16,870 bases of DNA from the NCBI GenBank assembly GCA_044356295.1, contig JBIKWN010000055.1, forward strand, positions 1-16,870, in the 5' to 3' direction. Made by a program: the position numbers and the translations under genes. Of the stretch, positions 29 through 15,823 are shown one piece after another; position 1 is the first letter of the stretch; each line of letters begins with the position of its first letter. The stretch is from Bdellovibrionota bacterium. GTDB lineage: Bacteria; Bdellovibrionota_C; UBA2361; JBIKWN01. The notes beneath the pieces are model-generated. The model saw nothing but the letters and a program-made list of their open reading frames with translations. It ran no database searches and was not told where the DNA came from.

Positions 29-811
29 TTAATGCGCAGCACCCATACTAACCTGATACATCTCTTCCATAAGAGGAATATTTCGACGCCAGTTAGGATC
101 CATTTTATCCCAAAGGATTTCAGTAGGCTGCTCTTGAACATGTAGCTCTTGAATCTTTGCTTGAGTAACAATCAGATCTGCTTTTACATCCCAAGGTTGA
201 AGAGGAAATGCTTCGGGTGTTACCTGTGTATCATGAACAATAACCGCAACAGGAGTCTTAACAGAAGTAAGTCCCATTTTTTGCCACATGATCCATTCAG
301 AATCAAACCATCCACAACCTTTTCCACCACGGCCACCGTGAGCGCTACTTACAAAAAGCGCACCAGTAATCATAAAATCAATATTCCCAGCAGCTCTCAC
401 TGCATCAAGTGTAGTAAGAGGTTTTCCAAAACGCTCAAACCCATCAAGTGTTGCAGAGAATTCTTCTTGTCCGGCGGGAACCATATCTCGAGTTAATAAA
501 AGAGCCCCACGACGAATGCCGTGAGTTGTCATAACGACTTCTTTATTTTGTTCAATGGCTCGTTGTCTTAATAATTCAGTACTTCTGTCAGGAGTGATAA
601 AGACACGTTTTGAATTGATCCATGTAGGGTGATTACAAAGAAGTTCAGTAGCTTTTTCAAAGCCAATAAAATTAGGAATAAATTCTGCAAGATCGAGATG
701 AAATACAGCATCAGGTATTAAAAGATTTTTTTCAATTAATGTCTTTGCAACATGCTCGCGAATAACATGTTTTGCACTATCTACATCATCAGTTGCTCTT
801 ATAAATGCCAC
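29..811 (-). CDS. 5-formyltetrahydrofolate cyclo-ligase family protein (MTHFS/MTHFSD-like), paralogue 1
   Basis: 260-aa ORF, GTG start preceded by GAAGGA. Family motifs IPNFIG, VFITPD, DFMITGALFVS..GRGGKGCGWFDSEW (GxRxGKGxGxxD-like), VIVHDTQV and DVKADLIVT. Confidence 0.85.
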   Translation of the reverse strand: MAFIRATDDVDSAKHVIREHVAKTLIEKNLLIPDAVFHLDLAEFIPNFIGFEKATELLCNHPTWINSKRVFITPDRSTELLRQRAIEQNKEVVMTTHGIRRGALLLTRDMVPAGQEEFSATLDGFERFGKPLTTLDAVRAAGNIDFMITGALFVSSAHGGRGGKGCGWFDSEWIMWQKMGLTSVKTPVAVIVHDTQVTPEAFPLQPWDVKADLIVTQAKIQELHVQEQPTEILWDKMDPNWRRNIPLMEEMYQVSMGAAH

Positions 812-840: not shown

Positions 841-1605
841 TTAAACAGCTTTTTTAGTTAGCTTTGCTCTTAGTTCATTTAAGAATGGTACATCTCTGTA
901 TTGGTCTGCCTGGACTAAGTCCCACGCAACACCTGTTGGTTGTGGATATGGTGTATGAGTTTCGATAATTTCATTTGGAGTAACTATCCAGTGAAGCGCT
1001 GAGTCATGCTCAAGCATAATAAGCTTTTCATTCTCAACAACTTGTACATCATGAACAGTAGTAACAATCGGGGCATGTTCCGGAATAGTGCCAACTTCTC
1101 TAAAAATCCCAAGCTCTAAATCAGCAAATCCACCACCTTTACCGGTTCGTCCACCTTCTCGAGTCACTGCAACACACCCAACAACGCAAACATCCATAGG
1201 GAGCATTTCGTCGAACTGAACGCGTTTACCATGTTTGAGCGCACCTGATGAGACTGCAGCTTCTTCGAAAGATACCCCGTTTTTTTTGAGTTCTTCAGGA
1301 TCTAGGAGTAAAAAAGGAAAATCTTGAACTAGTTCAGGTACCGGTGTGTAAACTAACTTACCTTCTTGCAGCGCTTTAAGCCGGACAGGTATTTGAGGAG
1401 CGTCAGGATTACACTTAACAACTTTAGCGCTCTTCCAAAAAGGAAGCGTTGCAAGTTTTTCAGCGGCGGTATGGGCACCAAAAAAGTTGGGTATAGCGCT
1501 CCAAATCGGCTCTATTCCAGCTTTTGAGGTTTCTAGAGCAGACCAAACTTCTCTTCGAAGGGTATCTTTATCGGTATTTCTTCCTTTCCATCGCTCATTT
1601 GTCAT
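841..1605 (-). CDS. 5-formyltetrahydrofolate cyclo-ligase family protein (MTHFSD-like), paralogue 2
   Basis: Motifs KDTLRREVW, IPNFFGA, VKCNPDAPQ, DVCVVGCVAV, GGRTGKGGGFADLE, TTVHDVQV and HDSALHWIVTP. Start moved from 1650 (TTG) to ATG 1605 (MTNERW) because GAGGA lies just upstream of it. Confidence 0.9.
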   Translation of the reverse strand: MTNERWKGRNTDKDTLRREVWSALETSKAGIEPIWSAIPNFFGAHTAAEKLATLPFWKSAKVVKCNPDAPQIPVRLKALQEGKLVYTPVPELVQDFPFLLLDPEELKKNGVSFEEAAVSSGALKHGKRVQFDEMLPMDVCVVGCVAVTREGGRTGKGGGFADLELGIFREVGTIPEHAPIVTTVHDVQVVENEKLIMLEHDSALHWIVTPNEIIETHTPYPQPTGVAWDLVQADQYRDVPFLNELRAKLTKKAV

Positions 1606-1732
1606 GTGCTTTCCTCGATTTTTATATACAGCAGCGTAAGAGTAGCACAATCGAGAACGCTACCCAAAAGGAGATAGAAAGAAATTATTTGGGTAAAAAC
1701 AAGAGAATTATCCGAATAGTGCCCTCGAGAAC

Positions 1733-1790: not shown

Positions 1791-4001
1791 ATGCAGACAT
1801 CTTTTAATACTCTTACTTCTTCAGAGGTATATCGCCTTTCTTTTCCTAATAAAGACAATAACTTACCGGATCTTACCGGTTCAGCAGGTGGGTACTTTAA
1901 AGATTGGTATAAATCATCAGTAGAACAAAAATCTCCTAAATTAACTCATGAACAACAACATCTTGTTGCTACAGAGCTCTGTGTTTCAATCGTTGAGCTA
2001 CTACGTGCTAAGGGCATTGAGGCGTATATCTCTCTTGTTCCTGTGCGTACTGCTTTTTCGAAAGATCTCTTTGATGTGCGACCTATGGTCATTATAGATC
2101 CTAAGCGTGGTGAACATCATTATAACATGCAAGCAAAGAAAGTTTGGGAAGACGGTAATACTTTCATTTCTGTCGATCCACTATCCTTTGTTCGTGATTC
2201 TGGTGCAAAAATTCGCTCCCAGAGTTACAAAAGTCCATTACGTGTAGCTACAATACCAGCAAGAGTATTAATCGATCGAGAATTTGGCGATGAATCGCTT
2301 CCATTAGAAGTTTATGAACTCCATACGAAAAAACTTACGAAATCAAAGGAAGATGGAAGTGCAGTTGAGGTAAATTCACGATATGGATATCTATCATCGG
2401 ATGTTGTTTATCCTCCATTTCAAGCCAAAGGAGATATTGGTAAATTAAATAGCTTTTTAACTGACCCAGAATTTGCCTCAAAGATTTCCCCCTGGGGTGC
2501 CGAGACTCTTTTAAATCAACGACCGATATCAGGTACAACTCAATTTGATGCTGTTTCTGAATTTGAGTTCGAAGGTAAAACTTGGTTTAAATATCTATTT
2601 CATGACACTCAAACTAAAGAACATACGTTTGCCCTCGTTAGGGGTGATATTGCCTCAAATAAAGATGTTTATACTCGGGTACACTCTTCATGTGTTACTA
2701 GTGAAACTTTAGGAGCGCTTGATTGTGATTGTAGAGATCAGTTGCGAAGAGCAATGGAGATCATTAATGAAAAAGATTCCGGAGTAATCTTTTACTGCGT
2801 TCAAGAAGGTAGAGGGGCTGGATATGCACCTAAAGGAAGAGATAGAAGTGCTGTGCAAGCGACAGGACATCAAGTAGACGATCTGTATGAAACCTATGAT
2901 AAGATGGGATTAAAAGGAGATTTAAGAGATTACCGCGGCGTTAAAGATATTCTTCATATGTTTGGTTTTGATAACTCTCCAGATAGCCCATCTTTAACAC
3001 TTATTTCGAATAATCAAACAAAACTTGCTGCACTTGCTCAAATGGGCGTAAATGTTAGTGGTCTTCATAAAGTTCCTAAGATGAGAGCTAACCCTTATAA
3101 TACAGATTATCTTGGGGCAAAGAAGTCTAATGCAGATCATGACGTTGAGCATTATGGTGATATCGGTATTACCGTAGAATTGCCTCCTATGATGACTATC
3201 CCTGCTGGCGTAGCGAATACTCATAGTGTCTCTTTTGATTTAATCGCCCAATATTCTTTACCTACGACGACATATCCTGGTCGTACAGTGATGAGCAAAG
3301 AAGAATATCAAGCACTTCTTTTAGAAGTACAAGAGAGAGGAAGTCCAGAGCTTTACAAATCGATTTTAGATGTTGAGGAATTAAATTGCTCACGTGTAGC
3401 GGTAAAACGATCAAGAGATCTTCTTAACCGTCATCGTGATACCCATGGTGTAGATTCGATCTATTCTGCTTTAGCTACAGCTGACTGGCAGTCTTTAAAA
3501 ATCATAGAAGACAAAGATTACAAAAGAACATACGCAGTGCTTGAGTACGGAGATATTAGCGAAGATATCAACCCAATGGTGTACTGCCATTTTGAATCAC
3601 TCGATGCTCGAATCTTTATTGATCCTGAAAGCAGAAAGACATATCGCCAAGCATGGAAGCAAATTATACAAAATGGACATGGCTATATGATCGTAGCTAT
3701 TAATGATGGACAAGGATCGACTATCAATTCTGAAACCATAATTCAGATGAGTCATTTAAAGGAAAAAATGGGACTTTCTCCTTATGATACTTCTCGTTCG
3801 CAAGTGGTCTTCGAAAAGACTCGACAAGAGTGCTTGCAAACTTCAGCCCATATAGCCCAAGCATTCGGATTGGGGGCTCGAGAGTTACAACTACTCGTTT
3901 CAGAAGGTCAAGATCCTGAAGCCAGTGCTTCGATATTTGAAGATATAGGTCTTACAGTTTCATCAATGACTAAAGTTGAGGATTTGGTCGATGTGTCGTG
4001 A
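1791..4001 (+). CDS. Non-canonical multidomain GTP cyclohydrolase II (RibA-like): unknown N-terminal region, GCH II domain, degenerate C-terminal GCH II-like domain
   Basis: RVHSSC(301)-x10-C(312)DC(314) Zn motif, QEGRG, DLRDY, ISNNQTK and NTDYLGAKKSNADH match RibA motifs (RVHSEC..RCDC, QEGR, DxRD, TNNPxK, YLxTK..GH). The C-terminal region repeats the scaffold (AVLEYGDI..PMVYCHFES..QAWKQI..GYMIVAINDGQG) without the Zn cysteines. Confidence 0.85.
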   Translation: MQTSFNTLTSSEVYRLSFPNKDNNLPDLTGSAGGYFKDWYKSSVEQKSPKLTHEQQHLVATELCVSIVELLRAKGIEAYISLVPVRTAFSKDLFDVRPMVIIDPKRGEHHYNMQAKKVWEDGNTFISVDPLSFVRDSGAKIRSQSYKSPLRVATIPARVLIDREFGDESLPLEVYELHTKKLTKSKEDGSAVEVNSRYGYLSSDVVYPPFQAKGDIGKLNSFLTDPEFASKISPWGAETLLNQRPISGTTQFDAVSEFEFEGKTWFKYLFHDTQTKEHTFALVRGDIASNKDVYTRVHSSCVTSETLGALDCDCRDQLRRAMEIINEKDSGVIFYCVQEGRGAGYAPKGRDRSAVQATGHQVDDLYETYDKMGLKGDLRDYRGVKDILHMFGFDNSPDSPSLTLISNNQTKLAALAQMGVNVSGLHKVPKMRANPYNTDYLGAKKSNADHDVEHYGDIGITVELPPMMTIPAGVANTHSVSFDLIAQYSLPTTTYPGRTVMSKEEYQALLLEVQERGSPELYKSILDVEELNCSRVAVKRSRDLLNRHRDTHGVDSIYSALATADWQSLKIIEDKDYKRTYAVLEYGDISEDINPMVYCHFESLDARIFIDPESRKTYRQAWKQIIQNGHGYMIVAINDGQGSTINSETIIQMSHLKEKMGLSPYDTSRSQVVFEKTRQECLQTSAHIAQAFGLGARELQLLVSEGQDPEASASIFEDIGLTVSSMTKVEDLVDVS

Positions 4002-4002
4002 T

Positions 4003-5142
4003 ATGGCAAATCTTAGCGGTGATCACGCACTTGCATGGCGTGGGCTTTCAGCAGATCCAAAACTGCGTACCCTTAGTAATCAAGATCCACTAGGGCATGA
4101 ACTTATGCGCACTCGAATTGATGCGTTGCCTGAGTTATTGAGTTCATACCGAGATCAGGATTCATCACTTTCGGTTTTATCTGCTGGTACTATTGAGATA
4201 GTAGGTGTTGGGACATCTCAAGCTCATTCAGAATTTCTTTCATATTTATTAGAGAAGTATGTTCGCAGAGCATCAAAGGTGATTGATCCACTAGAGATCA
4301 TGCAACATGCTCATGGGGAAGTTTCGAAGGTAAGAGATAATCTCGTAGTATTTTCACAAGGATTATCACCCAATACATATGCTTCAATCGCTGCGTTAAG
4401 CACTGCAAGAAAAGGAATTCTTTTCACTGCTGCTTCTCAAGAAGACGTATCACCAGAGTCTGAAAAAGCAAAAATACTAGAACAAATTTCAAAAAGTGGC
4501 ATTGAAACAGTTCTTTTCCCAATAGCAAACGAATACGAATTGCTGCCTCGATTTATTGGCCCGCTTCTTGGATTCGTAGCTTGTTATAAATTTGTTAAGG
4601 AAGGGCTTTGCAACGAACAAACAAATGAACTTCGCTCACTAGATCTAGATAATTTTTTTAGTAGTTCTAGGAACTGCGCTGAAAAGATACGTGAACAATT
4701 ATCTGATGTTGATTTCGATAAAGCTCCAATCCATCTCGTATCAACGGTACCGTTCCACCGAACAGCATTTAATCTACAAGAAAAGATTCGTGAATGTTTG
4801 CTTCCAGCTGGTGGAGTTTTTCTTTCAAGTATAACGGGATATGATCATGGGCGATTCCAACATAATCTTGTCAATAATGGTGTTGAATTTATTCTTACGA
4901 GAGTTGAACGAGATGGGGTTGAAGGAGAGCTTGTTGAAAATAGACATACCCAATCTAAACAGGCTGGTCTAAATACAATTACAATTGAATCACCATATTC
5001 ACGTGATATTTCAGTAATGTGGTTTGAAATGGTATTTAATTACTTGATGCTTGATCTTGTTAAAGAAAGACAGATGAACTTAGTTGAGTGGCCTGGAAAA
5101 GAGCTTGAGGCTCTTGGTAATTATAGATTAACAGGCCTATAA
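4003..5142 (+). CDS. Double-SIS-domain sugar-phosphate isomerase/deglycase (GlmS C-terminal/FrlB/AgaS-like)
   Basis: IEIVGVGTSQAH (GxGTS), LVVFSQGLSPN (ISQSGET-like), EKIRE (GlmS KLKE-like) and YDHGRF (HGP-like). No glutaminase domain. ATG 4003 lies 1 nt after the upstream TGA; ATG 3991 and TTG 3976 are alternative starts. Confidence 0.8.
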   Translation: MANLSGDHALAWRGLSADPKLRTLSNQDPLGHELMRTRIDALPELLSSYRDQDSSLSVLSAGTIEIVGVGTSQAHSEFLSYLLEKYVRRASKVIDPLEIMQHAHGEVSKVRDNLVVFSQGLSPNTYASIAALSTARKGILFTAASQEDVSPESEKAKILEQISKSGIETVLFPIANEYELLPRFIGPLLGFVACYKFVKEGLCNEQTNELRSLDLDNFFSSSRNCAEKIREQLSDVDFDKAPIHLVSTVPFHRTAFNLQEKIRECLLPAGGVFLSSITGYDHGRFQHNLVNNGVEFILTRVERDGVEGELVENRHTQSKQAGLNTITIESPYSRDISVMWFEMVFNYLMLDLVKERQMNLVEWPGKELEALGNYRLTGL

Positions 5143-5150
5143 GATTTTTC

Positions 5151-6065
5151 ATGAGTCAGTCAATTTATATCAATAGAGTAACAGTTATTGACTGTGCAAG
5201 GTTGAATCCTGAAAGTGGTGAATTTGTAGGAGATAGTTTTAATCTTCATACACTAATTAGTGGGGATGCAAACAGTAAAGAACAAGTCGTAGTAGATTTT
5301 TCATCTGGTAAAAAATTAATCAAATCAGCCATAGATGGCCATGTATTTCATCAAGAAAGTTCTGGTCTAGAAGATAACTCAAAAGAGAATGGTTACGACC
5401 ATAAAACGTGGATTCCAAGCGATCTTATAGATCACTATTCAGAGCAAGGTAGATATATAGAGCTCCAAGGACCTAAGGGCTTCCGAATGTCAGCACCTTC
5501 AAATGCAGTAAAGATTCTACCGCAAAAAGTTCTAGAAGATCTTGAAAGAGGTTCAACAGAAGAACTTCAGAAACATCTAAAGGGTTTTCTAGAGGCAACA
5601 ATTCCTGGATTTTCTTTTGAAGTATTTTTAGATCGAGTTCCCTATCTAGATTACGCTTCACATCTTTTTGGCGAAGTGTACAACACTGTAGGATTTCAGT
5701 ATCTCCATGGATTAAAACAATCAACCTCGTTTGGATGTCAAAATATATTACATGGTCACGGTTCTGTTGTTTCAAGTGATGACCAAGAAGCTGCGATACA
5801 GATTGCAAGGTATCTTGACGGTGCATATCTGTATGAAACTAACTCTAAAACGCCTCATTATGGAACTTTTGCCTATCAAACTCTCGATAGAGGAGCGTTT
5901 AACTTAAAGGTTTCAGAAGACCAGGCTGTAAAGTTAATCGATATTGGCGGCGAGCCTACCATAGAAAACCTCAGTCAACATGTCGCAGAGGCGTTGCAGA
6001 TCAGGACGCCATTTTTAATCTCTGAGGGATTACAGAAAGGCGCTCGTTATCATGGAAAAAGGTAA
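5151..6065 (+). CDS. Tandem T-fold QueD/6-pyruvoyl-tetrahydropterin synthase-like protein
   Basis: N-terminal half has VVVDFSSGKKLIK..GYDHK (PTPS DF..lK..lDH motif). C-terminal half has YLHGLK..GCQNILHGH (Zn His ligands plus catalytic Cys), PTIENL and ISEG. At 304 aa it is about twice the length of single-domain QueD. Confidence 0.85.
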   Translation: MSQSIYINRVTVIDCARLNPESGEFVGDSFNLHTLISGDANSKEQVVVDFSSGKKLIKSAIDGHVFHQESSGLEDNSKENGYDHKTWIPSDLIDHYSEQGRYIELQGPKGFRMSAPSNAVKILPQKVLEDLERGSTEELQKHLKGFLEATIPGFSFEVFLDRVPYLDYASHLFGEVYNTVGFQYLHGLKQSTSFGCQNILHGHGSVVSSDDQEAAIQIARYLDGAYLYETNSKTPHYGTFAYQTLDRGAFNLKVSEDQAVKLIDIGGEPTIENLSQHVAEALQIRTPFLISEGLQKGARYHGKR

Positions 6066-6070
6066 TTTAT

Positions 6071-6099
6071 TTGAGTAACCCTCCATCAAGTTTTATACT
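6071..6099 (+). promoter_or_regulatory. Putative internal sigma70 promoter for the LOG-deaminase gene
   Basis: TTGAGT (6071-6076), 17-nt spacer, TATACT (6094-6099), about 42 nt upstream of ATG 6142. Confidence 0.55.
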
Positions 6100-6141
6100 A
6101 TCGTATCGAAATTTTTCGGAAAATTGAGTGTAGTTTTTCTC

Positions 6142-8421
6142 ATGAATATCTCTACTGCAGGCGGATTACCACAATCAGAACACCCTTGCTTAGTAACAAG
6201 TTCATACTCGAATCCTAATTTTAAATTTCTTCAACGATATGTTACCGATTATCTTAATGGTTACTTCTTGCAAGGACTTGAAGATTATCGATTTGAGGAA
6301 CCACAAAGAATCATTAATTCATTTTCTGCTCAGTTCTGCCTTAAGGCAGCAGAAGAAATTGGTCATGAACCAGTAAGCTCACAGGAACTCAGAGTTGTTG
6401 CAAAAAAACTAGCTATTGATGTACTAAAACTTCAGTCGATGTTTCTTGTTGGTGCTACTGATGCAGCATTAGCAGTTTTTGGCACTGCTAGAGATCCACT
6501 TTGGGAGCAGTTTCCACCACTAAAGACTTTTACAGAAATTCTTGGAAAAGAAATTGCGTCTCGTATGTCTATTTCTTGCGGTGGTTTTGATACGGGTTCT
6601 TTAAAAGATCTATTATCCGCTTTTCTAAATGAACCTGATAGAAAAAGTCTCTATGCCATAATTTTAAATTTCAAAACTGATCTGTATCAACAGCACTCAC
6701 CAGAGCCACCTGTTGTTGCTGGTACAGAAGATTGGGAATTTCCGTTCGATTCAATCTATGACAGAACACCAACAATTATCTGTGCAGCTAACTTAATAGG
6801 AGAGCTGTTTAACCCTGGTACATGGGGTACCTTACAAGAATGGGGTGATTCATCACTTGGTAAAGTTAACAGTTCGATTAACCAAACTGTTTTTAGTCCA
6901 CGTTTTCAGGTTCCTCATCCAATTTTTTTACTTGATCCAAAAGTTGGTTCGACAACTTTTTACGAAGGAACCATCAAACAGTCAGCATTGTTTGGACATA
7001 TACAACCTGAACGTTCTGCAATGCTCATCGATAATTTGCTAATCATCCGAGAAGATAGTGTTTATAGAATTAAAAAAACAACAACTCCAGATGAATTATG
7101 TTTAGAAAAAATTTGTGATTTCGGATTTGAAAACGACCCACAAGCACTGACGCAGTATATGATTACGCTGATGGAACAAACCAAAGAGAAGCTAAAATCT
7201 GCTGGGGTTCTTTGGGATTTTTCAAAAGTTTCTGATCAGCTCAATCGATACAAGGAAAAGATTAAGGAATTAGAAAAACAGTTACCTGAGTTTCCCATCC
7301 TTAGAACCTCGGTAGATATAATTGAAAAATCTGAGATTCTTAATTTGATGAATGTGCATGAGCGTTTTCAACAAGATGGTTGGTCTATCGATCCCGTTGT
7401 ATATGCTTCCGAAGCTGCAAAAGGCTCGTCTTACCCTGGAAAACCTACTTCATTTGGAGCTGTATTTAAAGTTCAAACATATATAGATGGTAAAAAAGGT
7501 TCAATTATTTACCCAGTTGGTGCCAATATCGCTGAAAGTGGAAGGGATACAAATTGTGCCGAGCGAGTAGCTTACGGCAATTTACTTAGTTATTTGGATT
7601 GTATACTACCAGAAGGTACAACTTTCAAAATTGAAGGTGTACATATTCATCTAGATCAAAAAGCTGATTTTCGTTTTTCATGCTCTTGCCAAAATTGCCG
7701 TCAACTATTTCAAGATTTAGTTCAAAATGGGCAGATGGATCTTGATTCCACAATATCGTATCAAGCGGGCAATGGAACTGACATTTTATTTACTTCGATT
7801 GATAAGTTAAGACCATTAATTGATCCAACTCTTGATATAATCAATCAATCAGATAGGTTTATTCCTTCTTCGTTTGAATTTTTAGCAGCTGAAGATACAT
7901 GGACAGATACCGAAAAAGAATTAATCACACAAAGTATCAAAAGAGCAGTAAAATCAAACAATAATACAGGGATAGCTTCAGTGCTCCTTGATGGGACAAT
8001 TCTTTCTCGCTCCTTGAGTGATAATCAGTTTGGATTTGAATTGTTAAGACAAGAGTCAAAGGCGAAAGGTAATAATATTCATCTTGGATTTGTGTATGCA
8101 GTCAATCAAGAAAAGAATTCAGATGCTCTTCCAACATTTCCAGCAGATCAGCTTGATATCTTGCTAACGGCTTCTCAGATATCTGGATTTGATTCCTATG
8201 TATACGTTGTTCAGTCTGAACGTGGAGAGTATCAGGCGGGGTATCGAGTCAAAATCTCGGAACTATTTCCATTAGGGAAAGGTATGGGTGATTCCAAAGC
8301 AGGAGATGATCACTACCACCGCATGTCTTTGGATAGAATTTGGAACGGTGAGCAGTTCGATGGAAGTATTAGTGAGGAAACAGCCAATATGCTCTTTAGT
8401 GAGGCTCGGAAATTAAACTAA
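6142..8421 (+). CDS. Fusion of LOG-family (nucleotide phosphoribohydrolase-like) domain, cytidine-deaminase-like domain and a probable degenerate second deaminase-like domain
   Basis: LOG motifs AVFGTAR, ISCGG, FDSIYDR and NPGTWGTLQEW (PGGxGTxxE). Deaminase motifs SSYP..FGAV, GANI, NCAERVA and SCQNCRQ. C-terminal region ends ISELFPLG (ELLP-like) but has no Zn ligands. ATG 6142 preferred over TTG 6124. Confidence 0.75.
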   Translation: MNISTAGGLPQSEHPCLVTSSYSNPNFKFLQRYVTDYLNGYFLQGLEDYRFEEPQRIINSFSAQFCLKAAEEIGHEPVSSQELRVVAKKLAIDVLKLQSMFLVGATDAALAVFGTARDPLWEQFPPLKTFTEILGKEIASRMSISCGGFDTGSLKDLLSAFLNEPDRKSLYAIILNFKTDLYQQHSPEPPVVAGTEDWEFPFDSIYDRTPTIICAANLIGELFNPGTWGTLQEWGDSSLGKVNSSINQTVFSPRFQVPHPIFLLDPKVGSTTFYEGTIKQSALFGHIQPERSAMLIDNLLIIREDSVYRIKKTTTPDELCLEKICDFGFENDPQALTQYMITLMEQTKEKLKSAGVLWDFSKVSDQLNRYKEKIKELEKQLPEFPILRTSVDIIEKSEILNLMNVHERFQQDGWSIDPVVYASEAAKGSSYPGKPTSFGAVFKVQTYIDGKKGSIIYPVGANIAESGRDTNCAERVAYGNLLSYLDCILPEGTTFKIEGVHIHLDQKADFRFSCSCQNCRQLFQDLVQNGQMDLDSTISYQAGNGTDILFTSIDKLRPLIDPTLDIINQSDRFIPSSFEFLAAEDTWTDTEKELITQSIKRAVKSNNNTGIASVLLDGTILSRSLSDNQFGFELLRQESKAKGNNIHLGFVYAVNQEKNSDALPTFPADQLDILLTASQISGFDSYVYVVQSERGEYQAGYRVKISELFPLGKGMGDSKAGDDHYHRMSLDRIWNGEQFDGSISEETANMLFSEARKLN

Positions 8422-10529
8422 TCAGTAATCCAATCAGCAAGTGCGTGTAACTGCACTGTTGTTAGATGGAGCGCCATTCCCGCACGGCATCCAAATGCAT
8501 AAGAATGATAGTCGTGCCCATTCTTGGGGATGGATCGATTCGGATCAATAACATCAGAAACTATATAGATTGGGCTAAACGTTGCCGGCTCATGAATTGC
8601 ATGTAGATTATGTTCTTGAATTGCAGATGCTATTGGCAATCCTTCAACATCAATCATTCCTAAATGAACATTGGTATCTGCTAGCAGAGACTTAAATCCG
8701 ATATCTGTTTCGATTGCAGGACACGGCGCCCAGCCATGATCAGCATATTGAATAATTGCTTTATTAGTTGGCGGTTTTAGAGGAACTCGTATTTGTGAGC
8801 CAAGATTATAAGCAACAAATTTTCCAGTTGGAGTTACAAGATCTCCTTCCCCAATTTCAAATCTAGGAGTTTTGATGGCACCTGCCGTAGCGAGAAACTT
8901 TATTGTCTTACAAAGAGGAATTGGTGATTTTTTATTTGCTAGTTTTAAAAACTCTTCCACAAAAATACCGGCAGTATCACCGTACAGCCCAGCACCACCA
9001 ACGGATGGAATAAGAAGTTGATATACTTGCTTATCTTGTGGATTTTCTATCCATGCGGCAAAAGTTTTCCCTAACGTTGGAAGCGTTGTCATAGTTTTAT
9101 CGAGAATTAATCCCCGATTTTGAAGCCCACTAAGAATTGTCTCGGCACTTGTTGCAGGCAGAGCAATGACTTTTTTAATTGAAGTAATTGAGGCTGGTCT
9201 CGATAAGGTTGCTGCTTCGAGAGCTTTTTTTATCTCACTTCCTATTATTGAGTTAATAGGAGTCGTTCTGTAGTAGCTGTGTATGGCACTGATAGGAATT
9301 CGAGTATTTTTTTTGATGGTTTGTCCGTTGATGTCTTTCTTAGGACCATACAACAGAAGCGCTGTAGAATTTGAAAGAACTCGGTATTCGCCAGCTTGAG
9401 CTATACAAAAAATCAGACGCTTTTCGCCGGATGAGTCAGTAAATTTATACAGGGTCTTAGAAAAATCGCCGTATTGGCCACAAGTATCAATAGCAAGTAT
9501 CTCAGTGGCATTGCTTAAATATTTCTGAATTACTAGTGCTTCAGCTTCATGTTTCGTCCCATCTACGATAACAATTGGAATATGACCAAAAGCAGCTCTT
9601 TTTAAGATACTTTCTGCAAACCGAAATCTCGTATAGTCACGACCACCAACAAGAGAAGAAGCACCATGTGTAATTTCCTGGTCAAGTTGCTCGAGTATGG
9701 TGAGGTGTCGATCATCTTTTTCTAAGTGATCAATAGTATGCAAAGCGCAAACATTTGAAGAGAGAATACGAAAATCGATTAACCGAGATGCGTTTGGTAG
9801 GAAGCTACGAACAGTTGGAAGGTAATCTGGCTCGATTACCTTCGAGTCCATATATCGATTGAGCGAAGTAAAAAACTCTTCTTCCTCATTTTTGCTTTTT
9901 GGAGTGTAGTCAAGTGGAAGGTTTGATTCTGTAAGGAATCGATTAATAAGTTCAGGAAAAGTTTTATTAAAACGAATCTGAATAGTAATTCCATCTTGAG
10001 TATTACGAAAATGGAAAGCTTCAATGAGAAAAATAATTCTTGCTAGCTTGAAAAAACGCTTTTGATCACTGTTTGTTGTTGGTTCGTCTTGATAATGAGC
10101 AAGCGAATCTGGAATCAATCGTTCAATTATTCTTCTATTCTCATCTGAAAGAACAAATGGTGCATGTTCTGATAAAAGGCGTGAAAAAGCACTGATTGGA
10201 TTAGTTTTATCCTTTGCCTCGAGGGCGAGTTGTTCAATTTTTTTTGGCTCAAGACAGTATAGTCCTGCTTGGCAGACTCCAATAAAGTAATCTAATTGGC
10301 GGCTATATCCCCACTTCTCATTTTTTGTAATTTCAAAATTGTTAAGATTAGTTCCGATTGCGAGTGAACCAAAAGATTTTATTGAATCGTCTGGATAATA
10401 GTCATCTTTTTCAGGATTTAAAATTGAAAGTGCTTTTGAAATAAGAGGAGTTAATTCACGAGCCATACCATCGAGTAAGGTCTGGGCTCTAACCTTTCGT
10501 ATGACTTGATTGATAGAATCAGCTTTCAA
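8418..10529 (-). CDS. Large protein with uncharacterised N-terminus and C-terminal purine/uridine nucleoside phosphorylase-like domain
   Basis: 703-aa ORF (TTG start uncertain). C-terminal motifs GLYGD, IKFLATAGAI, IGEGDLVTP, PAIET, MIDVEGLPIA and IYIVSDV follow the PNP/UDP/MTAN order (GxAGxl, GDlv, vdmE, vSD). Confidence 0.6.
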   Translation of the reverse strand: MKADSINQVIRKVRAQTLLDGMARELTPLISKALSILNPEKDDYYPDDSIKSFGSLAIGTNLNNFEITKNEKWGYSRQLDYFIGVCQAGLYCLEPKKIEQLALEAKDKTNPISAFSRLLSEHAPFVLSDENRRIIERLIPDSLAHYQDEPTTNSDQKRFFKLARIIFLIEAFHFRNTQDGITIQIRFNKTFPELINRFLTESNLPLDYTPKSKNEEEEFFTSLNRYMDSKVIEPDYLPTVRSFLPNASRLIDFRILSSNVCALHTIDHLEKDDRHLTILEQLDQEITHGASSLVGGRDYTRFRFAESILKRAAFGHIPIVIVDGTKHEAEALVIQKYLSNATEILAIDTCGQYGDFSKTLYKFTDSSGEKRLIFCIAQAGEYRVLSNSTALLLYGPKKDINGQTIKKNTRIPISAIHSYYRTTPINSIIGSEIKKALEAATLSRPASITSIKKVIALPATSAETILSGLQNRGLILDKTMTTLPTLGKTFAAWIENPQDKQVYQLLIPSVGGAGLYGDTAGIFVEEFLKLANKKSPIPLCKTIKFLATAGAIKTPRFEIGEGDLVTPTGKFVAYNLGSQIRVPLKPPTNKAIIQYADHGWAPCPAIETDIGFKSLLADTNVHLGMIDVEGLPIASAIQEHNLHAIHEPATFSPIYIVSDVIDPNRSIPKNGHDYHSYAFGCRAGMALHLTTVQLHALADWITD

Positions 10530-10597: not shown

Positions 10598-11215
10598 CTA
10601 TTTCGCATCAATATTTGTAGCCCATAGAAACGTCGTCGTATTGTCACTACTATCTTCGATATGTGAAGCAAGAGTTTTTAAGTTAAAATTCTTAGCCAAC
10701 GCATTACTTCCAATGACTGCAGTCGTGGATGGTATTTCTTCATTCATTATACCCTGAGCTACTCTTGAAGGGTCGATAAATTCACCTTCTCCTACTATTA
10801 GTGTAAGACCAGAGAAGGACTTTTTAAGAGTCTTTTGACATTGGAAAAAGGCTTGCGGATGAGCCATAACATCTTGAATTTCTTCAAGATTCTTGTCTTT
10901 TCTCGAGAGTAGATTATGTTGAATTTTCAGAAGGTAGGTATCGACCACAAAAAATTCGTATCTTCCAAGACAATCAATCGTTTCTTGAACCAGTCCACCG
11001 AGCGAATTATGAATTGCAAAATGAGCAAAGCTAACTTTTTTTGCTTTCAGAGCTTCAAAGACATTTTTTGTAGTATAAAAATATTTAATTTCAAAATTTG
11101 TAAAACTTACTTCATTAAGCTTTGCTAAAACTGCTTCTTCATTAAAGCTTCCGGGTCCTCCCTGAATACCTATTGTGACAATAGAATCTTTAGGTAAATA
11201 AGATTCTAACTTCAT
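10598..11215 (-). CDS. Stand-alone prephenate dehydratase catalytic domain (no ACT domain)
   Basis: IQGGPGSFNEEA, AIHNSLGGLV, AHPQAFFQC, AVIGS and IEDSSDNTTTFL. The protein ends right after the N-x-T-x-F motif. ATGA overlap with the upstream pheA. Confidence 0.85.
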   Translation of the reverse strand: MKLESYLPKDSIVTIGIQGGPGSFNEEAVLAKLNEVSFTNFEIKYFYTTKNVFEALKAKKVSFAHFAIHNSLGGLVQETIDCLGRYEFFVVDTYLLKIQHNLLSRKDKNLEEIQDVMAHPQAFFQCQKTLKKSFSGLTLIVGEGEFIDPSRVAQGIMNEEIPSTTAVIGSNALAKNFNLKTLASHIEDSSDNTTTFLWATNIDAK

Positions 11216-12264
11216 AAGGAACTGTAACTACCCAAGATTTTGTAGGGGATGCTTCTTTGAGAAAGTTGGCTTAGTACTGATTTAGTATTTGAATCATTTT
11301 TATCTCCTTCAAACTCAAGAAGAAACGGAATGGTCGATCCGCCACGAGATGATAATGATTCAATCTTTAAAAGATTAATTTTATGTTCAGAAAAAAGATC
11401 TAACACGGCAGAGAGAGTTCCTGATGAATGATTCGTAGAGAAATAGAGCATTGTTTTGCTACCCTGTTTGGCAGCAGTTTTACTGACTTGTAAAAACCTT
11501 GCTGGTTCAAATAATTTATCGTCGGTTAAATCCTTGATAACGTGAAGATTATATACTTCTGCACATAAGATAGGTGCTATCACTCCGGTGGCGAGAGGTC
11601 TGTCCTGTCGTAACATGAGTGCAGCAGCAGCCGATTCATGGAAAGGATGAGCTTCAAGTTTCATCCGCTCCAAGAACGCAGACGAACGACTTAAAACTTC
11701 TGGATGCCCATAGACAATTTTAATTTCACGGTAGTTAGATTCAGGAAGAGTCATCAATGCGTAAGAGGGATTGATAGTAACATCAGCTACAACAAAAAGA
11801 TCTGAATCAAGAAGTAGAGAAAGTGATTTTTCAAGTCTTGAATCGCTTACGCGTTCAAATGGAACCATAGCACAATCGATAGTATTATTTTGAAGATGAT
11901 TGAATAGTTCCTCGTGAGATTCGTATGGGACGGGAATGATTGGTTGCTGAATTTTTCCAATCGCAGTTTCAATCAGACTTCCATGTACGCCAAAGAATCC
12001 GATAAGGTGCTGTGTGACTTCTTGTAGGCTCTTGCTTTCAGCTACAATAAGTTTCGAGAGCTTCTCTGAAAAGTCAGATGAAACAAGCCAGCGTGCATTT
12101 TTACGGGCATTTTCAAGGATTACTTGTTCTCTATTTGTATCAACAAGAGCTTCCTTAAGCCGGCGAGTACGAACTGCATATTCAAATCGTTTTCCAATAA
12201 GACGTAAAATTTCACTATCAATTGAATCTATTTCAGTTCTGATAATTTCAAGGTCTTTTGACAT
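11212..12264 (-). CDS. pheA: Chorismate mutase / prephenate dehydratase-like / ACT protein (P-protein); dehydratase domain degenerate
   Basis: AroQ-type mutase: IRTEIDSIDSEILRLIGKRF..D.NREQVI. PDT scaffold with divergent motifs (PFERVSDS, GHPEVLSRS, EPARF). ACT domain GTLSAVLDLF..KINLLKIES..KILGSY. AAGGA ribosome-binding site. Confidence 0.8.
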   Translation of the reverse strand: MSKDLEIIRTEIDSIDSEILRLIGKRFEYAVRTRRLKEALVDTNREQVILENARKNARWLVSSDFSEKLSKLIVAESKSLQEVTQHLIGFFGVHGSLIETAIGKIQQPIIPVPYESHEELFNHLQNNTIDCAMVPFERVSDSRLEKSLSLLLDSDLFVVADVTINPSYALMTLPESNYREIKIVYGHPEVLSRSSAFLERMKLEAHPFHESAAAALMLRQDRPLATGVIAPILCAEVYNLHVIKDLTDDKLFEPARFLQVSKTAAKQGSKTMLYFSTNHSSGTLSAVLDLFSEHKINLLKIESLSSRGGSTIPFLLEFEGDKNDSNTKSVLSQLSQRSIPYKILGSYSSL

Positions 12265-12270
12265 GAAATA

Positions 12271-13275
12271 TTATCCTTTTAGTTGTTGTTGAAAATAATG
12301 TTGTGAGTTTCGAATCAGTATAAAATCAGCAAGTGCAATAGCCGTAATAGCTTCAGCTACTGGTGGTACTCGAAGCGCAATACAAGCATCGTGACGTCCG
12401 GATACAGAAAGAGTTGTAAGCTCACCGGTAGATACATTGATAGTCTGTTTTTCTTTTTTGATGCTCGATGTCGGCTTTACTGCAAGGCGAAACGTTAATG
12501 TATTTCCGTTACTAATTCCGCCACTAATCCCTCCAGCATTATTAGTTTTAGTAGCTCCTGCACTATCTTGATACTCATCGTTATGGTTGCTTCCAAATAA
12601 TTTTGAAGAATTAAACCCTGAGCCAAATTCAATACCCTTTATAGCCGGAATTGCAAAAGCAAGATGCGATATCGTGCTTTCGATGCTATCAAAGAATGGT
12701 TCGCCCAATCCGATTGGTAGTCCTGAAGCCGTTACAGAGATGAGTCCTCCTACAGAATCGCCATCATCAAGAGCTTTCTTAATAGTGCCTTCTATATCAG
12801 TACTTCCACCAACTTCGGTGAGTTTTGCATTAATAGATATTGAAGGAATGATTTTTTTTGCTACGACACCAGCTGCAACTAAAGCAGCTGTAAGTCTTCC
12901 AGAGAAGTGCCCACCACCACGATAATCTTGAAAGCCAAAGAATTTATGTTGTGAAACAAAATCTGCATGCCCGGGTCTTGGGGTATCTTTCATCTTTTCA
13001 TATGAAGAGGAATCCGTATCGCCATTTTTAAATAGAATGGTAAGAGGAGCACCAGTAGTTTTATTGTTAAAAACACCGGTAAATATTTCAGGTATATCGA
13101 GCTCTTTTCTTGGAGTTGTTCCAATCGCTCCGGAGCGCCTACGAGCAAGATCGTTTTCAAAATCATTCGCTGAAAGCGTTATTCCGGCAGGGCATCCATC
13201 AATGGTAACTCCAAGCCCCGCGCCATGTGATTCACCAAAAATAGAAATAATAAAAAGTCTGCCAAAGGTATTCAT
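12271..13275 (-). CDS. aroC: Chorismate synthase
   Basis: MNTFG..FGESHG, RPGHAD, DYRGGGHFSGRLTA, DSVGG, IPAIKGIEFG, NNAGGISGGISNG, KPTSSI and GRHDACI. Confidence 0.97.
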   Translation of the reverse strand: MNTFGRLFIISIFGESHGAGLGVTIDGCPAGITLSANDFENDLARRRSGAIGTTPRKELDIPEIFTGVFNNKTTGAPLTILFKNGDTDSSSYEKMKDTPRPGHADFVSQHKFFGFQDYRGGGHFSGRLTAALVAAGVVAKKIIPSISINAKLTEVGGSTDIEGTIKKALDDGDSVGGLISVTASGLPIGLGEPFFDSIESTISHLAFAIPAIKGIEFGSGFNSSKLFGSNHNDEYQDSAGATKTNNAGGISGGISNGNTLTFRLAVKPTSSIKKEKQTINVSTGELTTLSVSGRHDACIALRVPPVAEAITAIALADFILIRNSQHYFQQQLKG

Positions 13276-14541
13276 TTATTCACTAATTTTACTGTTTTTT
13301 TCTAATACCTCAAAGAAATCTGGATAGCTTTTTTTAACCACATCAGAGTCGTTAATAGCGACAAGTTTTAATGCTCTCAGTGCAGTAATTGCTGTTGCCA
13401 TGACAATACGGTGGTCGTTATAGGAATCCATGGGCACGTCAGGTTGTGATAATGTACCCCCAGTAATCTTGAGAGAATCATCTTGATGTGTGATTGAAAT
13501 TCCAAACTTTCTAAATTCTTTTATCAGAGCTTCGGCTCTATTTGACTCCTTATGAATGAGTCTAGATGTCCCACGAATAATACTGACTCCATCACATGCA
13601 GTCGCAAGAGAAACGAGCGGCGGAAATAAATCTGGACAATCAGTCGCATCGAACTCAAAAGGCATTAATGGTGATTGTGGTTTCTCGAGGCGGAGAGTGT
13701 TTTTATTGATCCACTCAATTTTTCCTCCTGTTGATTCAATAACATCAAGAATAGCTTTATCTGCTTGTAGTGAGTCTTTGCTTATTTGCGAAAGAACAAT
13801 ACTTCCAGTTGTAACTGCTGCAACCAATAGGAAACTTGCCGATGACCAGTCACCTTCAACTGTTAGGATTTGACCGGTTGGTTGTTGGTTCCCAGGAATA
13901 TCGAATTCGGAAAAGTCTTTGTTGTATTCAATATTGACTAAAAAGTTTTTTAAAGCCTTTAGGGTCATTTCGATATAGGGGCGACTTTTAAGGTTTTTAA
14001 TGATTAGTTTGGTATTTTCAGTTCTTCTTGGCAGAGCGATTAATAGCCCAGAGATTAGCTGTGAAGTAATCGAACCATCAATCGTAATAATATTTTCTTT
14101 AAAAGGTCCAGTAATGGTCAGAGGGGCAAACCCTCCATTTGAAGAAACAGATAATCCAGCACGAGAAAGTGTATCAACGACCATTTGCATAGTTCTTGAT
14201 AATAACGATCCAGTACCTGTAAGGGTGATTGGTTTTTCATAGAGTCCAGCTATCGCTGAAAAAATCCTAAAAGAAGTTCCGGATTCAGCACATTTTAAAA
14301 CACATGGAAAAACAGGATCATCTGGGATTATCTCGATGTTTCCATCCTTTCTTGTACGAGCCATTGCTCCAAGGCCTCTCGCAACTTCAAGAGATGCAAG
14401 TCCATCGTCACAGAGCGAAGGATTTTTTATAGTTGTAGCACTCGAGGCAATAGCAGCGAGAGCAACATAACGTTGCATCATACTTTTTGAGGCAGGAGCA
14501 GAAACCTGACCAATAAAGTTAGCGGGTTGAACTAATTTCAT
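13276..14541 (-). CDS. aroA: 3-phosphoshikimate 1-carboxyvinyltransferase (EPSP synthase)
   Basis: PASKSMMQR, ESGTSFR, TSQLISGLL, SRPYIEMT, EGDWSSA, DCPDLFP, HKESNR, NDHRIVM and KSYPDF. Start set to ATG 14541 (MKLVQP), which overlaps the upstream gene by 23 nt. Confidence 0.96.
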   Translation of the reverse strand: MKLVQPANFIGQVSAPASKSMMQRYVALAAIASSATTIKNPSLCDDGLASLEVARGLGAMARTRKDGNIEIIPDDPVFPCVLKCAESGTSFRIFSAIAGLYEKPITLTGTGSLLSRTMQMVVDTLSRAGLSVSSNGGFAPLTITGPFKENIITIDGSITSQLISGLLIALPRRTENTKLIIKNLKSRPYIEMTLKALKNFLVNIEYNKDFSEFDIPGNQQPTGQILTVEGDWSSASFLLVAAVTTGSIVLSQISKDSLQADKAILDVIESTGGKIEWINKNTLRLEKPQSPLMPFEFDATDCPDLFPPLVSLATACDGVSIIRGTSRLIHKESNRAEALIKEFRKFGISITHQDDSLKITGGTLSQPDVPMDSYNDHRIVMATAITALRALKLVAINDSDVVKKSYPDFFEVLEKNSKISE

Positions 14542-15823
14542 AGAGGATCTTTTCAGCAAGCTCTCGTGAAGAGCGTATATCACTTCGTATTATTATATCT
14601 GATGTTTCCGCATAACGCTTGAACCTTTCTTTTAAAAGTTCAGTCAAGGTTTCTTTGATAGGTTTGCCTTTTAGAAGTGGCCTATCTGTGGATTTACTAA
14701 GACGAGATTCTAGGGTATCGATTGAGCTCCAAAGCCAAAACGAAGTTCCATTGTTTTTCATATGAACTCTATTCTTTTCATTTAGAACTGCGCCTCCTCC
14801 ACATGCAATAAAGTCAGCATGAGATGATCTGATAATATTTTCTTCAAGTTTTCGAAAATATATCTCTCCTTGAGTGGCAAATATTTCATTTATACTCATA
14901 TGAGCCGCTTTTTCAATCTCTTGGTCTGTATCAAGTGTCGAATATCCAAGCGCCGCAAGTTCTTGAAGTACAGATGATTTACCAGACCCCATTAAGCCAA
15001 TTAAGTAAAAGCACCCTTTTGAATCTGTTTTTTTTGATTGTAGAAGGGAGTCTAATGACTGAATTTGCTGGTCGCTTAAATTCTTATCAGTAAAGAGTGA
15101 ATAGTTTTTTATTGCCTGACCGATAAGCCAATCAAGACCTGATGCAGTTTGAATCATTGCGTTTTTGGCGGCTTTAGTGACCTCTGATTCAGAGCGATAT
15201 GTCGCATCAAGAAGTACAGCATCTTTATGAAAGTAAAATCCAGTAGGCAAAGTAACATCTGGCGGTATTGTAGAGATAACAATTGAAGCCTGAGAAAATA
15301 AATTTTTTGCATCTTCAGAAGTAAACTCGATTGCATTCAATCGAGTTGTTCGTGCTATGTACCGAGATGGTATTTGTATCGAATCTAAGGCTTCTTTGCA
15401 TGCCCTTGCAGCTCCGCCATTACCAAGAATTACTGCTGACAGGTTTGCTGGATTAGAAATATCTATTTTCTTTGAAAGGGCACTAAGCACACCGAAAGTA
15501 TCGGTATTATATCCCTTCCAGAGAAAATTATTAGCAGAATCCTCATTTGTTTTTGTTTTAATAAAAGTATTTACTACCCCGGTTGATGCTGCATCAGCGT
15601 TTTTGCTGGTAGTCAGTGAGAAAAAATCTTCTTTAAACGGCGCAGTAATATTAAATCCTGAAATATCTAACTCGTTTGCAAGGCCTAGGGCTTCTTTGGC
15701 AGAATCTGCTGCAATTCTAGTATAAATATGATCGTTTAAATTATTTTCCTTAAAAGCAAAATTAAAAAGAATTGGACTTTTAGAGTATAGAATTGGATTT
15801 CCGGTGACAGCAAAAAGCTTCAT
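14519..15823 (-). CDS. aroE: Bifunctional shikimate dehydrogenase - shikimate kinase (AroE-AroK fusion)
   Basis: AroE motifs [26 protein letters not shown] and GNGGAARA. AroK motifs GLMGSGKSS (Walker A), [22 protein letters not shown] and RPLL. Confidence 0.93.

Follow-up and report, generated by a model that had tools for sequence, protein, structure and literature searches.

The described proteins closest to the one reported here are the cytidine deaminases (CDAs), which occur as homotetrameric enzymes and as two-domain homodimeric enzymes of the E. coli Cdd type, and the LOG/PpnN family. In CDAs, the Asn and Glu of a GxNxE stretch take part in nucleoside binding; the zinc ligands of the E. 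coli-type Cdd are His/Cys/Cys, as opposed to the three cysteines found here. LOG proteins are marked by the signature PGGxGTxxE, with its catalytic Glu, and by the phosphate-binding loop GGGxxGxMG. A further class, the LmjF36.5940-like clade, is described by Iyer et al. (2011) as CDD/CDA-derived and as present also in Bdellovibrio, and its non-kinetoplastid members are described there as having an uncharacterised N-terminal Rossmann-fold domain (PMC3239186). We analyzed a 759-aa open reading frame (ORF) on a contig of a Bdellovibrionota bacterium (JBIKWN010000055.1); the window, i.e., the whole stretch of DNA analyzed, is the entire 16,870-nt contig, from a genome of 2.96 Mb in 128 contigs that is 93.6% complete. 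The deaminase part of the encoded protein is a catalytic three-Cys CDA domain and a structural CDA-fold domain in tandem, and it is preceded by a domain that appears to be a strongly diverged member of the LOG superfamily.

The ORF runs on the forward strand as a single frame from an ATG at position 6142 to 8421 (stop codon 8419-8421), without an internal stop; an alternative in-frame TTG start at 6124 would give a protein of 765 aa. The first-pass annotation of this DNA had proposed a fusion of a LOG-family domain and a cytidine deaminase, and all of its ORF and motif coordinates were confirmed on the intact 759-aa frame. It had also raised the concern that the ORF might be an assembly chimera of two genes. 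A search of 5.8 billion clusters found only two relatives, P0002 (745 aa, 58% identity over 95% of the protein) and P0003 (750 aa, 55% identity over 97%), and the three proteins align end to end (full length of the ORF at 6142..8421, +) with the same architecture. Moreover, 94% of the sampled words were present in an independent lake-water metagenome run from a different study (X2), in which four contigs with 0 differences cover positions 5800-7667 and 7716-8700 (positions 7668-7715 are outside the contigs listed); one of these contigs spans 7083-7667, i.e., from the middle region of the protein into the first CDA domain. Because the orthologues share the architecture and the X2 contigs match without a difference, a chimera was excluded.

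The first domain of the deaminase part, CDA1 (residues 415-565; 7384..7836, +), was recognized by hhalign, Foldseek and structural superposition. The profile of the three orthologues matched six tetrameric CDAs taken from related genomes (Prob 90.9, E = 1.1e-6, residues 419-561; hhalign), and CDA1 alone matched them with Prob 94.2 and E = 1.1e-7, with the CAE and CxxC motifs in register. The best library model was TIGR01354, which scored 13.6 bits over residues 442-528 (E = 0.062; cut-off 113.65 bits), and PF00383 was not reported by Pfam at E up to 10. The AlphaFold2 (AF2) model of the whole protein was poor (mean pLDDT 44.3; N-terminal domain at 20-30), but in a Foldseek search with it the top matches were all cytidine deaminases; the LOG-like domain was not folded by AF2, and the fold evidence therefore covers the C-terminal half. 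When this half (residues 415-759) was modeled with free tandem CDAs in the alignment (pLDDT 69, pTM 0.60), Foldseek reported 42 matches at E up to 1e-3, with CDAs in all top rows and 2d30, the B. anthracis Cdd-2, as the best (E = 1.6e-6). CDA1 superposed on Cdd-2 with Z = 15.3 and a root-mean-square deviation (rmsd) of 2.4 A over 119 of 124 residues (model residues 2-146), and on blasticidin S deaminase with Z = 11.8.

The motif NCAE (7552..7563, +; CAE at 7555-7563), aligned to the CAE of CDAs, holds the zinc ligand Cys472 and the catalytic Glu474, followed by Arg475, while CSCQNC (7681..7698, +; CQNC from 7687), aligned to PCGxC, holds the zinc ligands Cys516 and Cys519 (CxxC). C472, A473, E474, C516 and C519 are invariant in 3/3 orthologues, and the E, C and C of the active site are invariant across a 10-row tandem-CDA alignment as well. 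As judged from these alignments, CDA1 has the complete three-Cys zinc site and the putative proton-shuttle glutamate of tetrameric CDAs (C472, E474, C516, C519), and the three-Cys zinc deaminase site proposed in the first-pass annotation is thus upheld both by the register of CAE and CxxC and by the fold match. The stretch GANIAES (7519..7539, +) corresponds, in CDA alignments, to the nucleoside-binding GxNxE; its Asn462 is kept and invariant, and its Glu lies one position later than in the GxN(x)E/D of the relatives.

A single deaminase domain had been proposed initially; the catalytic CDA is indeed present, but it is followed by CDA2 (residues 566-715; 7837..8286, +), a second CDA-fold domain recognized from profile matches, BLASTP, fold alignment and composition. 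CDA2 contains 0 Cys and 1 His and, because it has no cysteine, is unable to bind zinc. Matches to the CDA2 part of the tandem-CDA profile came from single-domain CDAs of relatives (e.g., that of G007, E = 1.7e-9, positions 216-335), BLASTP aligned CDA2 with the second domain of the tandem CDA of G013 (E = 6e-4), and two-domain CDA chains align over 285-309 columns in Foldseek, with 1ctt aligning to model residues 1-279. Direct hhalign comparisons with canonical CDAs gave Prob 8.8 for CDA2 (0.2 for the middle region of the protein and 0.1 for its N-terminal helices), and PF08211 was not reported at E up to 10. Near the end of CDA2, ELFPLGKG (8260..8283, +) resembles the C-terminal LLP motif of CDAs and is conserved across the tandem-CDA family. 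A predicted complex of two copies of the C-terminal half scored 0.12 (mark 0.42), which is evidence neither for nor against dimerization.

Free tandem-CDA proteins of 347-397 aa were found in 15/124 genomes of the phylum by a tandem-CDA profile search (loci L118:28-1212, L113:985-2055, L152, L154, L155, L160 and L166). In these proteins, too, the catalytic domain comes first and the zinc-less domain second, and several are without a Pfam match. When proteins of similar length were searched with the tandem-CDA alignment, the matches were members of the fusion family, a fragment of the fusion protein itself and, apart from these, only two free tandem CDAs.

The N-terminal domain (residues ~108-281; 6463..6984, +) was assigned by hhalign and by a PDB profile search. 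Weak matches to residues ~95-280 were found in the genomes of relatives (best E = 9e-9 with the protein and 6.4e-11 with a profile); the proteins concerned have either one such domain (335-339 aa) or two in tandem, and the latter comprise three complete ORFs of 633-703 aa and an open-ended one of 693 aa. These LOG-like relatives carry the textbook LOG motifs GSARD, GGGATGAMG and PGGFGTIEE and show weak PF03641 matches. By hhalign, the N-terminal domain matched the LOG-like family of relatives with Prob 99.0 and E = 4.2e-18 over 168 columns, and this family in turn matched 29 canonical LOGs of the same order with Prob 98.5 and E = 1.8e-15. A PDB search with a joint profile of the fusion protein and the LOG-like relatives returned 14 chains, 14/14 of the LOG family (best E = 9.6e-4); 9 of them are named phosphoribohydrolase or LONELY GUY, 2 are lysine-decarboxylase-like and 3 are hypothetical proteins, which we take to be LOG-type. 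As judged from this transitive profile link, the N-terminal domain is by descent a strongly diverged Rossmannoid domain of the LOG superfamily.

The motifs of this domain follow the LOG order. AVFGTARD (6472..6495, +; FGTARD at 6478-6495) resembles the (V/I)FGSAR start of LOG proteins, and all three orthologues keep its G114, A116, R117 and D118. CGGFDTG (6577..6597, +) aligns to GGGATGAMG and GGAETGAMG of the LOG-like relatives and represents a degenerate counterpart of the LOG phosphate loop. In DRTP (6760..6771, +), Arg208 and the Thr are invariant both in the orthologues and in the alignment with the LOG-like relatives, through which Arg208 is aligned to the Arg of the canonical LOG consensus. 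Finally, alignments with orthologues and LOG-like relatives place PGTWGTLQE (6814..6840, +) at the LOG signature; P, the first G, G, T and E (Glu233) are kept and invariant, and Thr stands at the second G.

The tandem LOG-like family, which has a low-complexity N-terminus and weak Pfam LOG matches, occurs in four genomes of the order (L004:418-2319, L009:427-2418, L010:1117-3228 and L011:1090-3168). Divergent from the tandem LOG-like gene of L004 lies an ORF (L004:2511-3518, +) in which a phosphoribosyltransferase-type phosphoribosyl pyrophosphate-binding motif was seen by eye and Pfam reported nothing. LOG domains were also observed within proteins of 551-799 aa (L167-L170, in G002, G022, G025 and G017), the remainder of which is without a Pfam family.

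The other parts of the protein match no family. An N-terminal helical region (residues 1-95; 6142..6426, +), modeled as helices by AF2 with pLDDT up to ~70, shows 51-53% identity to the orthologues. The segment between the two enzyme domains, described in the first-pass annotation as a helical charged linker, is rather a region of ~130 residues (residues 286-414; 6997..7383, +) with predicted strands followed by long helices, modeled at low confidence, and represents the least conserved part of the protein. The C-terminal tail (residues 716-759; 8287..8418, +) is poorly conserved and was also modeled at low confidence. Identity to the orthologues is 61-67% in the LOG-like domain and 62-64% in CDA1, as compared to 42-44% in the middle region and 43% in the tail, and the candidate catalytic residues of both domains are invariant in 3/3 orthologues; this pattern is consistent with functional constraint on both domains. 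For the whole protein, Pfam found 0 families at E up to 0.01, PHROGs found 0 families, and PDB sequence searches with the single protein and with the three-orthologue profile gave chance matches only (E above 0.5). Neither a signal peptide nor a membrane segment was found (top 19-residue hydropathy 1.42), and a Sec-secreted protein was dropped as a candidate, as the N-terminus is not hydrophobic.

The full-length protein was found in 1/41 nearest genomes, 1/91 genomes of the order and 1/124 genomes of the phylum. A HMMER scan of 1.84 billion representatives recovered P0002 and a 228-aa fragment identical to the protein itself and nothing more, a metagenome scan for related loci found one locus (L005), and among the 96 pattern matches of a contig search with the three-orthologue alignment there was no true relative. 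In the genome itself, tblastn with each half recovered no paralogue, only the fusion gene. The sequencing runs in which the gene was found are metagenomes of lake water. Within the data searched, the family is confined to one genus of lake-water Bdellovibrionota-like bacteria.

We tentatively favor, at somewhat less than an even chance, the reading that this protein acts in the cytoplasm, as a soluble enzyme with two activities, in the breakdown and salvage of cytosine nucleotides or nucleosides. CDA1 would hydrolytically deaminate a cytidine-type substrate, and CDA2, like the second domain of the E. coli-type Cdd, would stand in structurally for the missing subunits; because CDA2 would replace these subunits, the proposed active form is a dimer or larger. 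Hydrolysis of the N-glycosidic bond by the LOG-like domain would give a free base and ribose 5-phosphate. The two reactions would be consecutive steps, in either order and on a nucleoside or nucleotide of the ribo or deoxy type, e.g., from cytidine monophosphate or cytidine to the uracil form and on to uracil and sugar phosphate, and the ribose phosphate and bases from scavenged nucleotides would be fed into metabolism. The first-pass annotation had named a modified nucleotide as a possible substrate, and nothing was found pointing that way.

G010, a genome from the same order, encodes a second fusion, which supports the favored reading by analogy. There, a 734-aa frame (L117:1-1941, contig C5) joins a PNP_UDP_1 domain with dCMP_cyt_deam_2 and dCMP_cyt_deam_1, the inactive CDA domain preceding the active one, and would thereby couple glycosidic-bond cleavage with cytidine deamination, i.e., the classical Cdd and Udp salvage steps. 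The inosine-uridine nucleoside hydrolase encoded near one orthologue (see below) fits the same pyrimidine theme. Moreover, searches with TIGR01354 detected no canonical cdd in the three genomes of the genus (G000, G001 and G002), with 10/31 searched genomes matched, and the fusion may therefore supply cytidine deaminase activity for the genus. Bdellovibrio reportedly takes up and uses nucleoside monophosphates and metabolizes the ribose of RNA.

A number of observations weigh against this reading. As PF03641 was not matched by the protein at E up to 10 and direct hhalign comparison of the N-terminal domain with the 29 canonical LOGs gave Prob 2.5, membership in the LOG superfamily rests on the transitive link; moreover, no LOG model of NCBIfam was matched at E up to 1, and an ESM Atlas search with residues 1-330 gave no usable feature match, with all structural rows at TM under 0.4. 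The LOG domain call of the first-pass annotation therefore stands as far as the transitive link and the kept Arg and Glu are concerned, and it fails by Pfam, NCBIfam, PDB sequence search and direct profile comparison. Because the LOG signature motifs are altered (CGGFDTGSLK in place of GGGxxGxMG and PGTWGTLQE in place of PGGxGTxxE), phosphate binding or catalysis by the LOG-like domain may be changed or lost. In the GxNxE stretch of CDA1, the Glu that binds ribose lies one residue away from its usual position. The genome already carries a canonical LOG on contig C82, the gene neighborhood differs between the two lineages seen, and the family is very narrow (two relatives, and one of the 124 phylum genomes), which is odd for a core salvage enzyme. 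Finally, a predatory lifestyle of the organism is assumed from the phylum label only.

Upstream of the fusion gene lies a same-strand group (1791..6065, +) that encodes a 736-aa protein with a GTP cyclohydrolase II (GCH-II) domain, a 388-aa protein of unknown function and a 304-aa PTPS/QueD-like protein, separated from the fusion gene by a gap of 76 nt. A sigma-70-like promoter match in this gap (TTGAGT-17-TATACT; 6071..6099, +) is weak and a consensus match only, and the promoter-consensus scan found 13 sites as compared to 26.3 expected from shuffles. The 736-aa protein (1791-4001, +) has ~265 residues without a family on each side of its GCH-II domain, and the genome contains 5 GCH-II domain matches (in the window and on contigs C68, C23 and C71), including a 499-aa frame with two domains, an expansion that is unusual for an enzyme normally present in single copy. 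The 304-aa protein (5151-6065, +) shows weak PTPS/QueD matches in both halves and matches phrog_14221, a phage family of unknown function (E = 1.9e-24). Two adjacent paralogous genes of the 5-formyltetrahydrofolate cyclo-ligase family were observed at 29-811 (-) and 841-1650 (-).

Downstream, a convergent 703-aa ORF without a family (8418..10529, -) overlaps the stop of the fusion gene with its own stop by 4 nt. This ORF is 64% identical over 701 aa to a 733-aa ORF of a sister genome of the same genus (G091), with DNA synteny; the G091 genome is syntenic with the window from 8464 onward and not before. Genes of the shikimate and phenylalanine pathways lie beyond the convergent ORF. The beginning of that G091 contig overlaps, with 95% identity, the metagenome contig that carries the orthologue P0002, and the order in this lineage is topA, the orthologue, a same-strand unknown protein, inosine-uridine nucleoside hydrolase, further genes, the 733-aa ORF and the shikimate genes; in the genome analyzed here, contig C69 has the end of topA at its edge. 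The fusion gene is thus near the same anchor in both lineages, while its immediate neighbors differ. Among the downstream genes, two adjacent prephenate dehydratase genes were observed (10598-12264, -; one encoding 205 aa alone and one encoding 350 aa fused to chorismate mutase and ACT), as well as a fused gene for shikimate dehydrogenase (N-domain) and shikimate kinase (14519-15823, -). Chorismate synthase (12271-13275, -) shows 80% and 74% identity to two Bdellovibrionota metagenome-assembled genomes (MAGs), and its other best named matches are mostly Bacteroidota (54-67% identity), suggesting that the shikimate cluster may have been acquired from Bacteroidota.

The position of the gene on the same strand and immediately downstream of the tight GCH-II group raises the alternative that it encodes a pathway enzyme for that group, which we consider unlikely. 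The GCH-II product carries a ribosylamino-5'-phosphate bond and an exocyclic amine, as is established from riboflavin chemistry, and these represent the two bond types that the two domains would attack; a RibD-like deaminase would remove the 2-amino group of 2,5-diamino-6-ribosylamino-4-pyrimidinone 5'-phosphate, cleavage of its N-glycosidic bond would fall to the LOG-like domain, and the freed aminopyrimidine would go, with the PTPS/T-fold protein, into a pteridine-, flavin- or toxoflavin-like product. With 5 GCH-II domain matches in the genome, some would not serve riboflavin synthesis. However, the orthologue P0002 lies between topA and an unknown protein rather than beside such genes, the PTPS-like gene was found in 1/91 genomes of the order, i.e., only in this genome and not in the same-genus genomes, a promoter-like site occupies the gap upstream, and the closest matches of CDA1 are three-Cys tetrameric CDAs and blasticidin S deaminase, not deaminases of the RibD type, which have a His-Cys-Cys motif. 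A more specific version, quite improbable in our view, makes the fusion the last enzyme of an as yet undescribed GTP-derived pathway encoded at 1791-8421: the multidomain GCH-II would open GTP, the LOG-like domain, with its phosphate loop re-tooled, would strip ribose 5-phosphate from the ring-opened pyrimidine nucleotide, the three-Cys deaminase would take off the 2-amino group, and the tandem T-fold protein, which is related to a phage family, would build a pteridine- or azapteridine-like molecule together with the 388-aa protein. If this is true, the LOG fold and the CDA fold would each have been put to a new biochemical use.

The degenerate phosphate-loop and signature motifs also fit a sensor-effector, in which a non-hydrolyzing SLOG-type domain would bind a nucleotide signal and switch on the deaminase, which would deplete or alter the cytosine nucleotide pool in conflict or defense. 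SLOG domains act as ligand sensors in Thoeris ThsA, according to the reports drawn on here (PMC7272460, PMC11204291), and the gene is located in a variable stretch between conserved anchors. Nevertheless, no variation was seen in the Arg and Glu that align with conserved LOG positions, no conserved partner gene was observed, PADLOC found 0 families at E up to 0.01 among 7 proteins (the fusion and its neighbors in both lineages) and the PHROGs search of the fusion itself was likewise empty; the anti-phage role raised at the outset is thus unsupported, and a sensor-effector appears quite doubtful. An exported predatory or competitive effector that would destroy nucleotides of the prey or host cell is very unlikely in our assessment. 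It would accord with the nearest named relatives being Bdellovibrionota MAGs, with flanking ORFs that are large and without a family, and with the lineage-specific expansions, in the order, of large nucleotide-directed proteins without another recognizable domain (the tandem LOG-like proteins of 633-703 aa and the open-ended one of 693 aa, the LOG proteins of 551-799 aa, and the tandem CDAs). The missing signal peptide or hydrophobic segment, the lack of a secretion-system gene nearby and a predatory lifestyle that is only assumed argue against it, as does the tetrameric-type CDA active site, which is that of small-molecule salvage enzymes. Least probable would be an RNA- or DNA-editing deaminase, as Iyer et al. 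(2011) suggested for LmjF36.5940-like proteins. The general architecture fits this clade, reported from Bdellovibrio (PMC3239186), and APOBEC chains do appear lower in the fold lists; structurally, however, CDAs acting on free nucleosides are far the best matches (Z 12-15, as compared to a TMt of ~0.3 for APOBEC), no nucleic-acid-binding domain was detected in Pfam scans, and PF14421 was not matched by the protein at E up to 10, a model that matched 0/124 phylum genomes and 0/14 controls and thus lacked a positive control.

If both domains are active, the protein would be the first studied example of a cytidine deaminase to which an N-glycosidase of the LOG type is physically joined and, together with the phosphorylase-CDA fusion of G010, would indicate that fusions of base release with deamination recur in this bacterial group. 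Such a case would help to understand how relatives of predatory bacteria take apart the nucleotides that they scavenge, and would show how far LOG signature motifs can drift while activity is possibly kept. The protein also represents a test case for annotation, as Pfam, structure prediction and language-model look-ups all miss its N-terminal domain, which comes within reach only via lineage-specific intermediates. The practical value is modest, as the family is limited to one genus as far as searched and both chemistries are well known.

CDA1 shares both its fold and its three-Cys zinc site, CAE(R)...CxxC, with homotetrameric CDAs (B. subtilis, 1jtk; B. anthracis Cdd-2, 2d30; human, 1mq0) and with blasticidin S deaminase (1wn6). 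These enzymes, however, consist of free subunits of ~130 aa, whereas CDA1 is preceded by 414 residues and followed by a zinc-less CDA domain; the protein also falls below every family threshold, and its GxNxE Glu is one position off. The two-domain homodimeric Cdd of the E. coli type (1ctt, 4eg2, 6k63; PF00383 and PF08211) has the same order of a catalytic and then a non-catalytic CDA-fold domain. Overall rmsd to our model is 13.8-15.8 A, however, and the modeled domain packing differs; moreover, PF08211 is undetected in the fusion, which has an extra N-terminal half. The free tandem CDAs of the phylum (G011, G013, G043, G057, G067, G073 and G077) align with the C-terminal half, with G, N, E, C, C and P invariant, but are without an N-terminal enzyme domain and show only 20-23% identity to it.

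With LOG and PpnN (PF03641; 1wek, 5its, 5ajt), the N-terminal domain shares the motif order FG(S/T)AR, GG..G loop, Arg and PG..GT..E; on the other hand, the link is transitive, the second Gly of PGGxGT is Thr, the loop reads CGGFDTGSLK, and the domain forms one part of a 759-aa protein that also has helical regions at its N-terminus and in its middle. The G010 fusion likewise joins a tandem CDA module to a domain that cleaves glycosidic bonds, but its partner is a phosphorylase-superfamily domain and its inactive CDA domain comes first. In the ThsA-type SLOG sensors of Thoeris, as these are described, a LOG-related Rossmannoid fold is also combined with an effector enzyme domain (PMC7272460, PMC11204291); this effector is a SIR2 or macro domain rather than a CDA, and the fusion protein differs in keeping the LOG Arg/Glu pair and in having no PADLOC match.

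In the literature searched, we found no described fusion of a LOG or SLOG domain with a cytidine deaminase and no biochemically characterised member of either the LOG-CDA fusion or the LmjF36.5940-like clade. The earlier statement that no characterised protein has such an architecture thus holds for characterised proteins, but a class combining a Rossmann domain with a CDA-derived deaminase had been noted computationally in 2011, as far as that report describes it (PMC3239186). Compared by description only, the LmjF36.5940-like proteins (PF14421) resemble the fusion protein in having a CDD/CDA-derived deaminase and an N-terminal Rossmann-fold domain; a tandem second CDA domain, as present here, is not mentioned for the clade in the parts of that report that describe it (PMC3239186). 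Overall, while the general architecture class has been noticed before, what is new here is the assignment of the N-terminal domain as LOG-derived, as judged from the profile link, and of the deaminase module as tandem.

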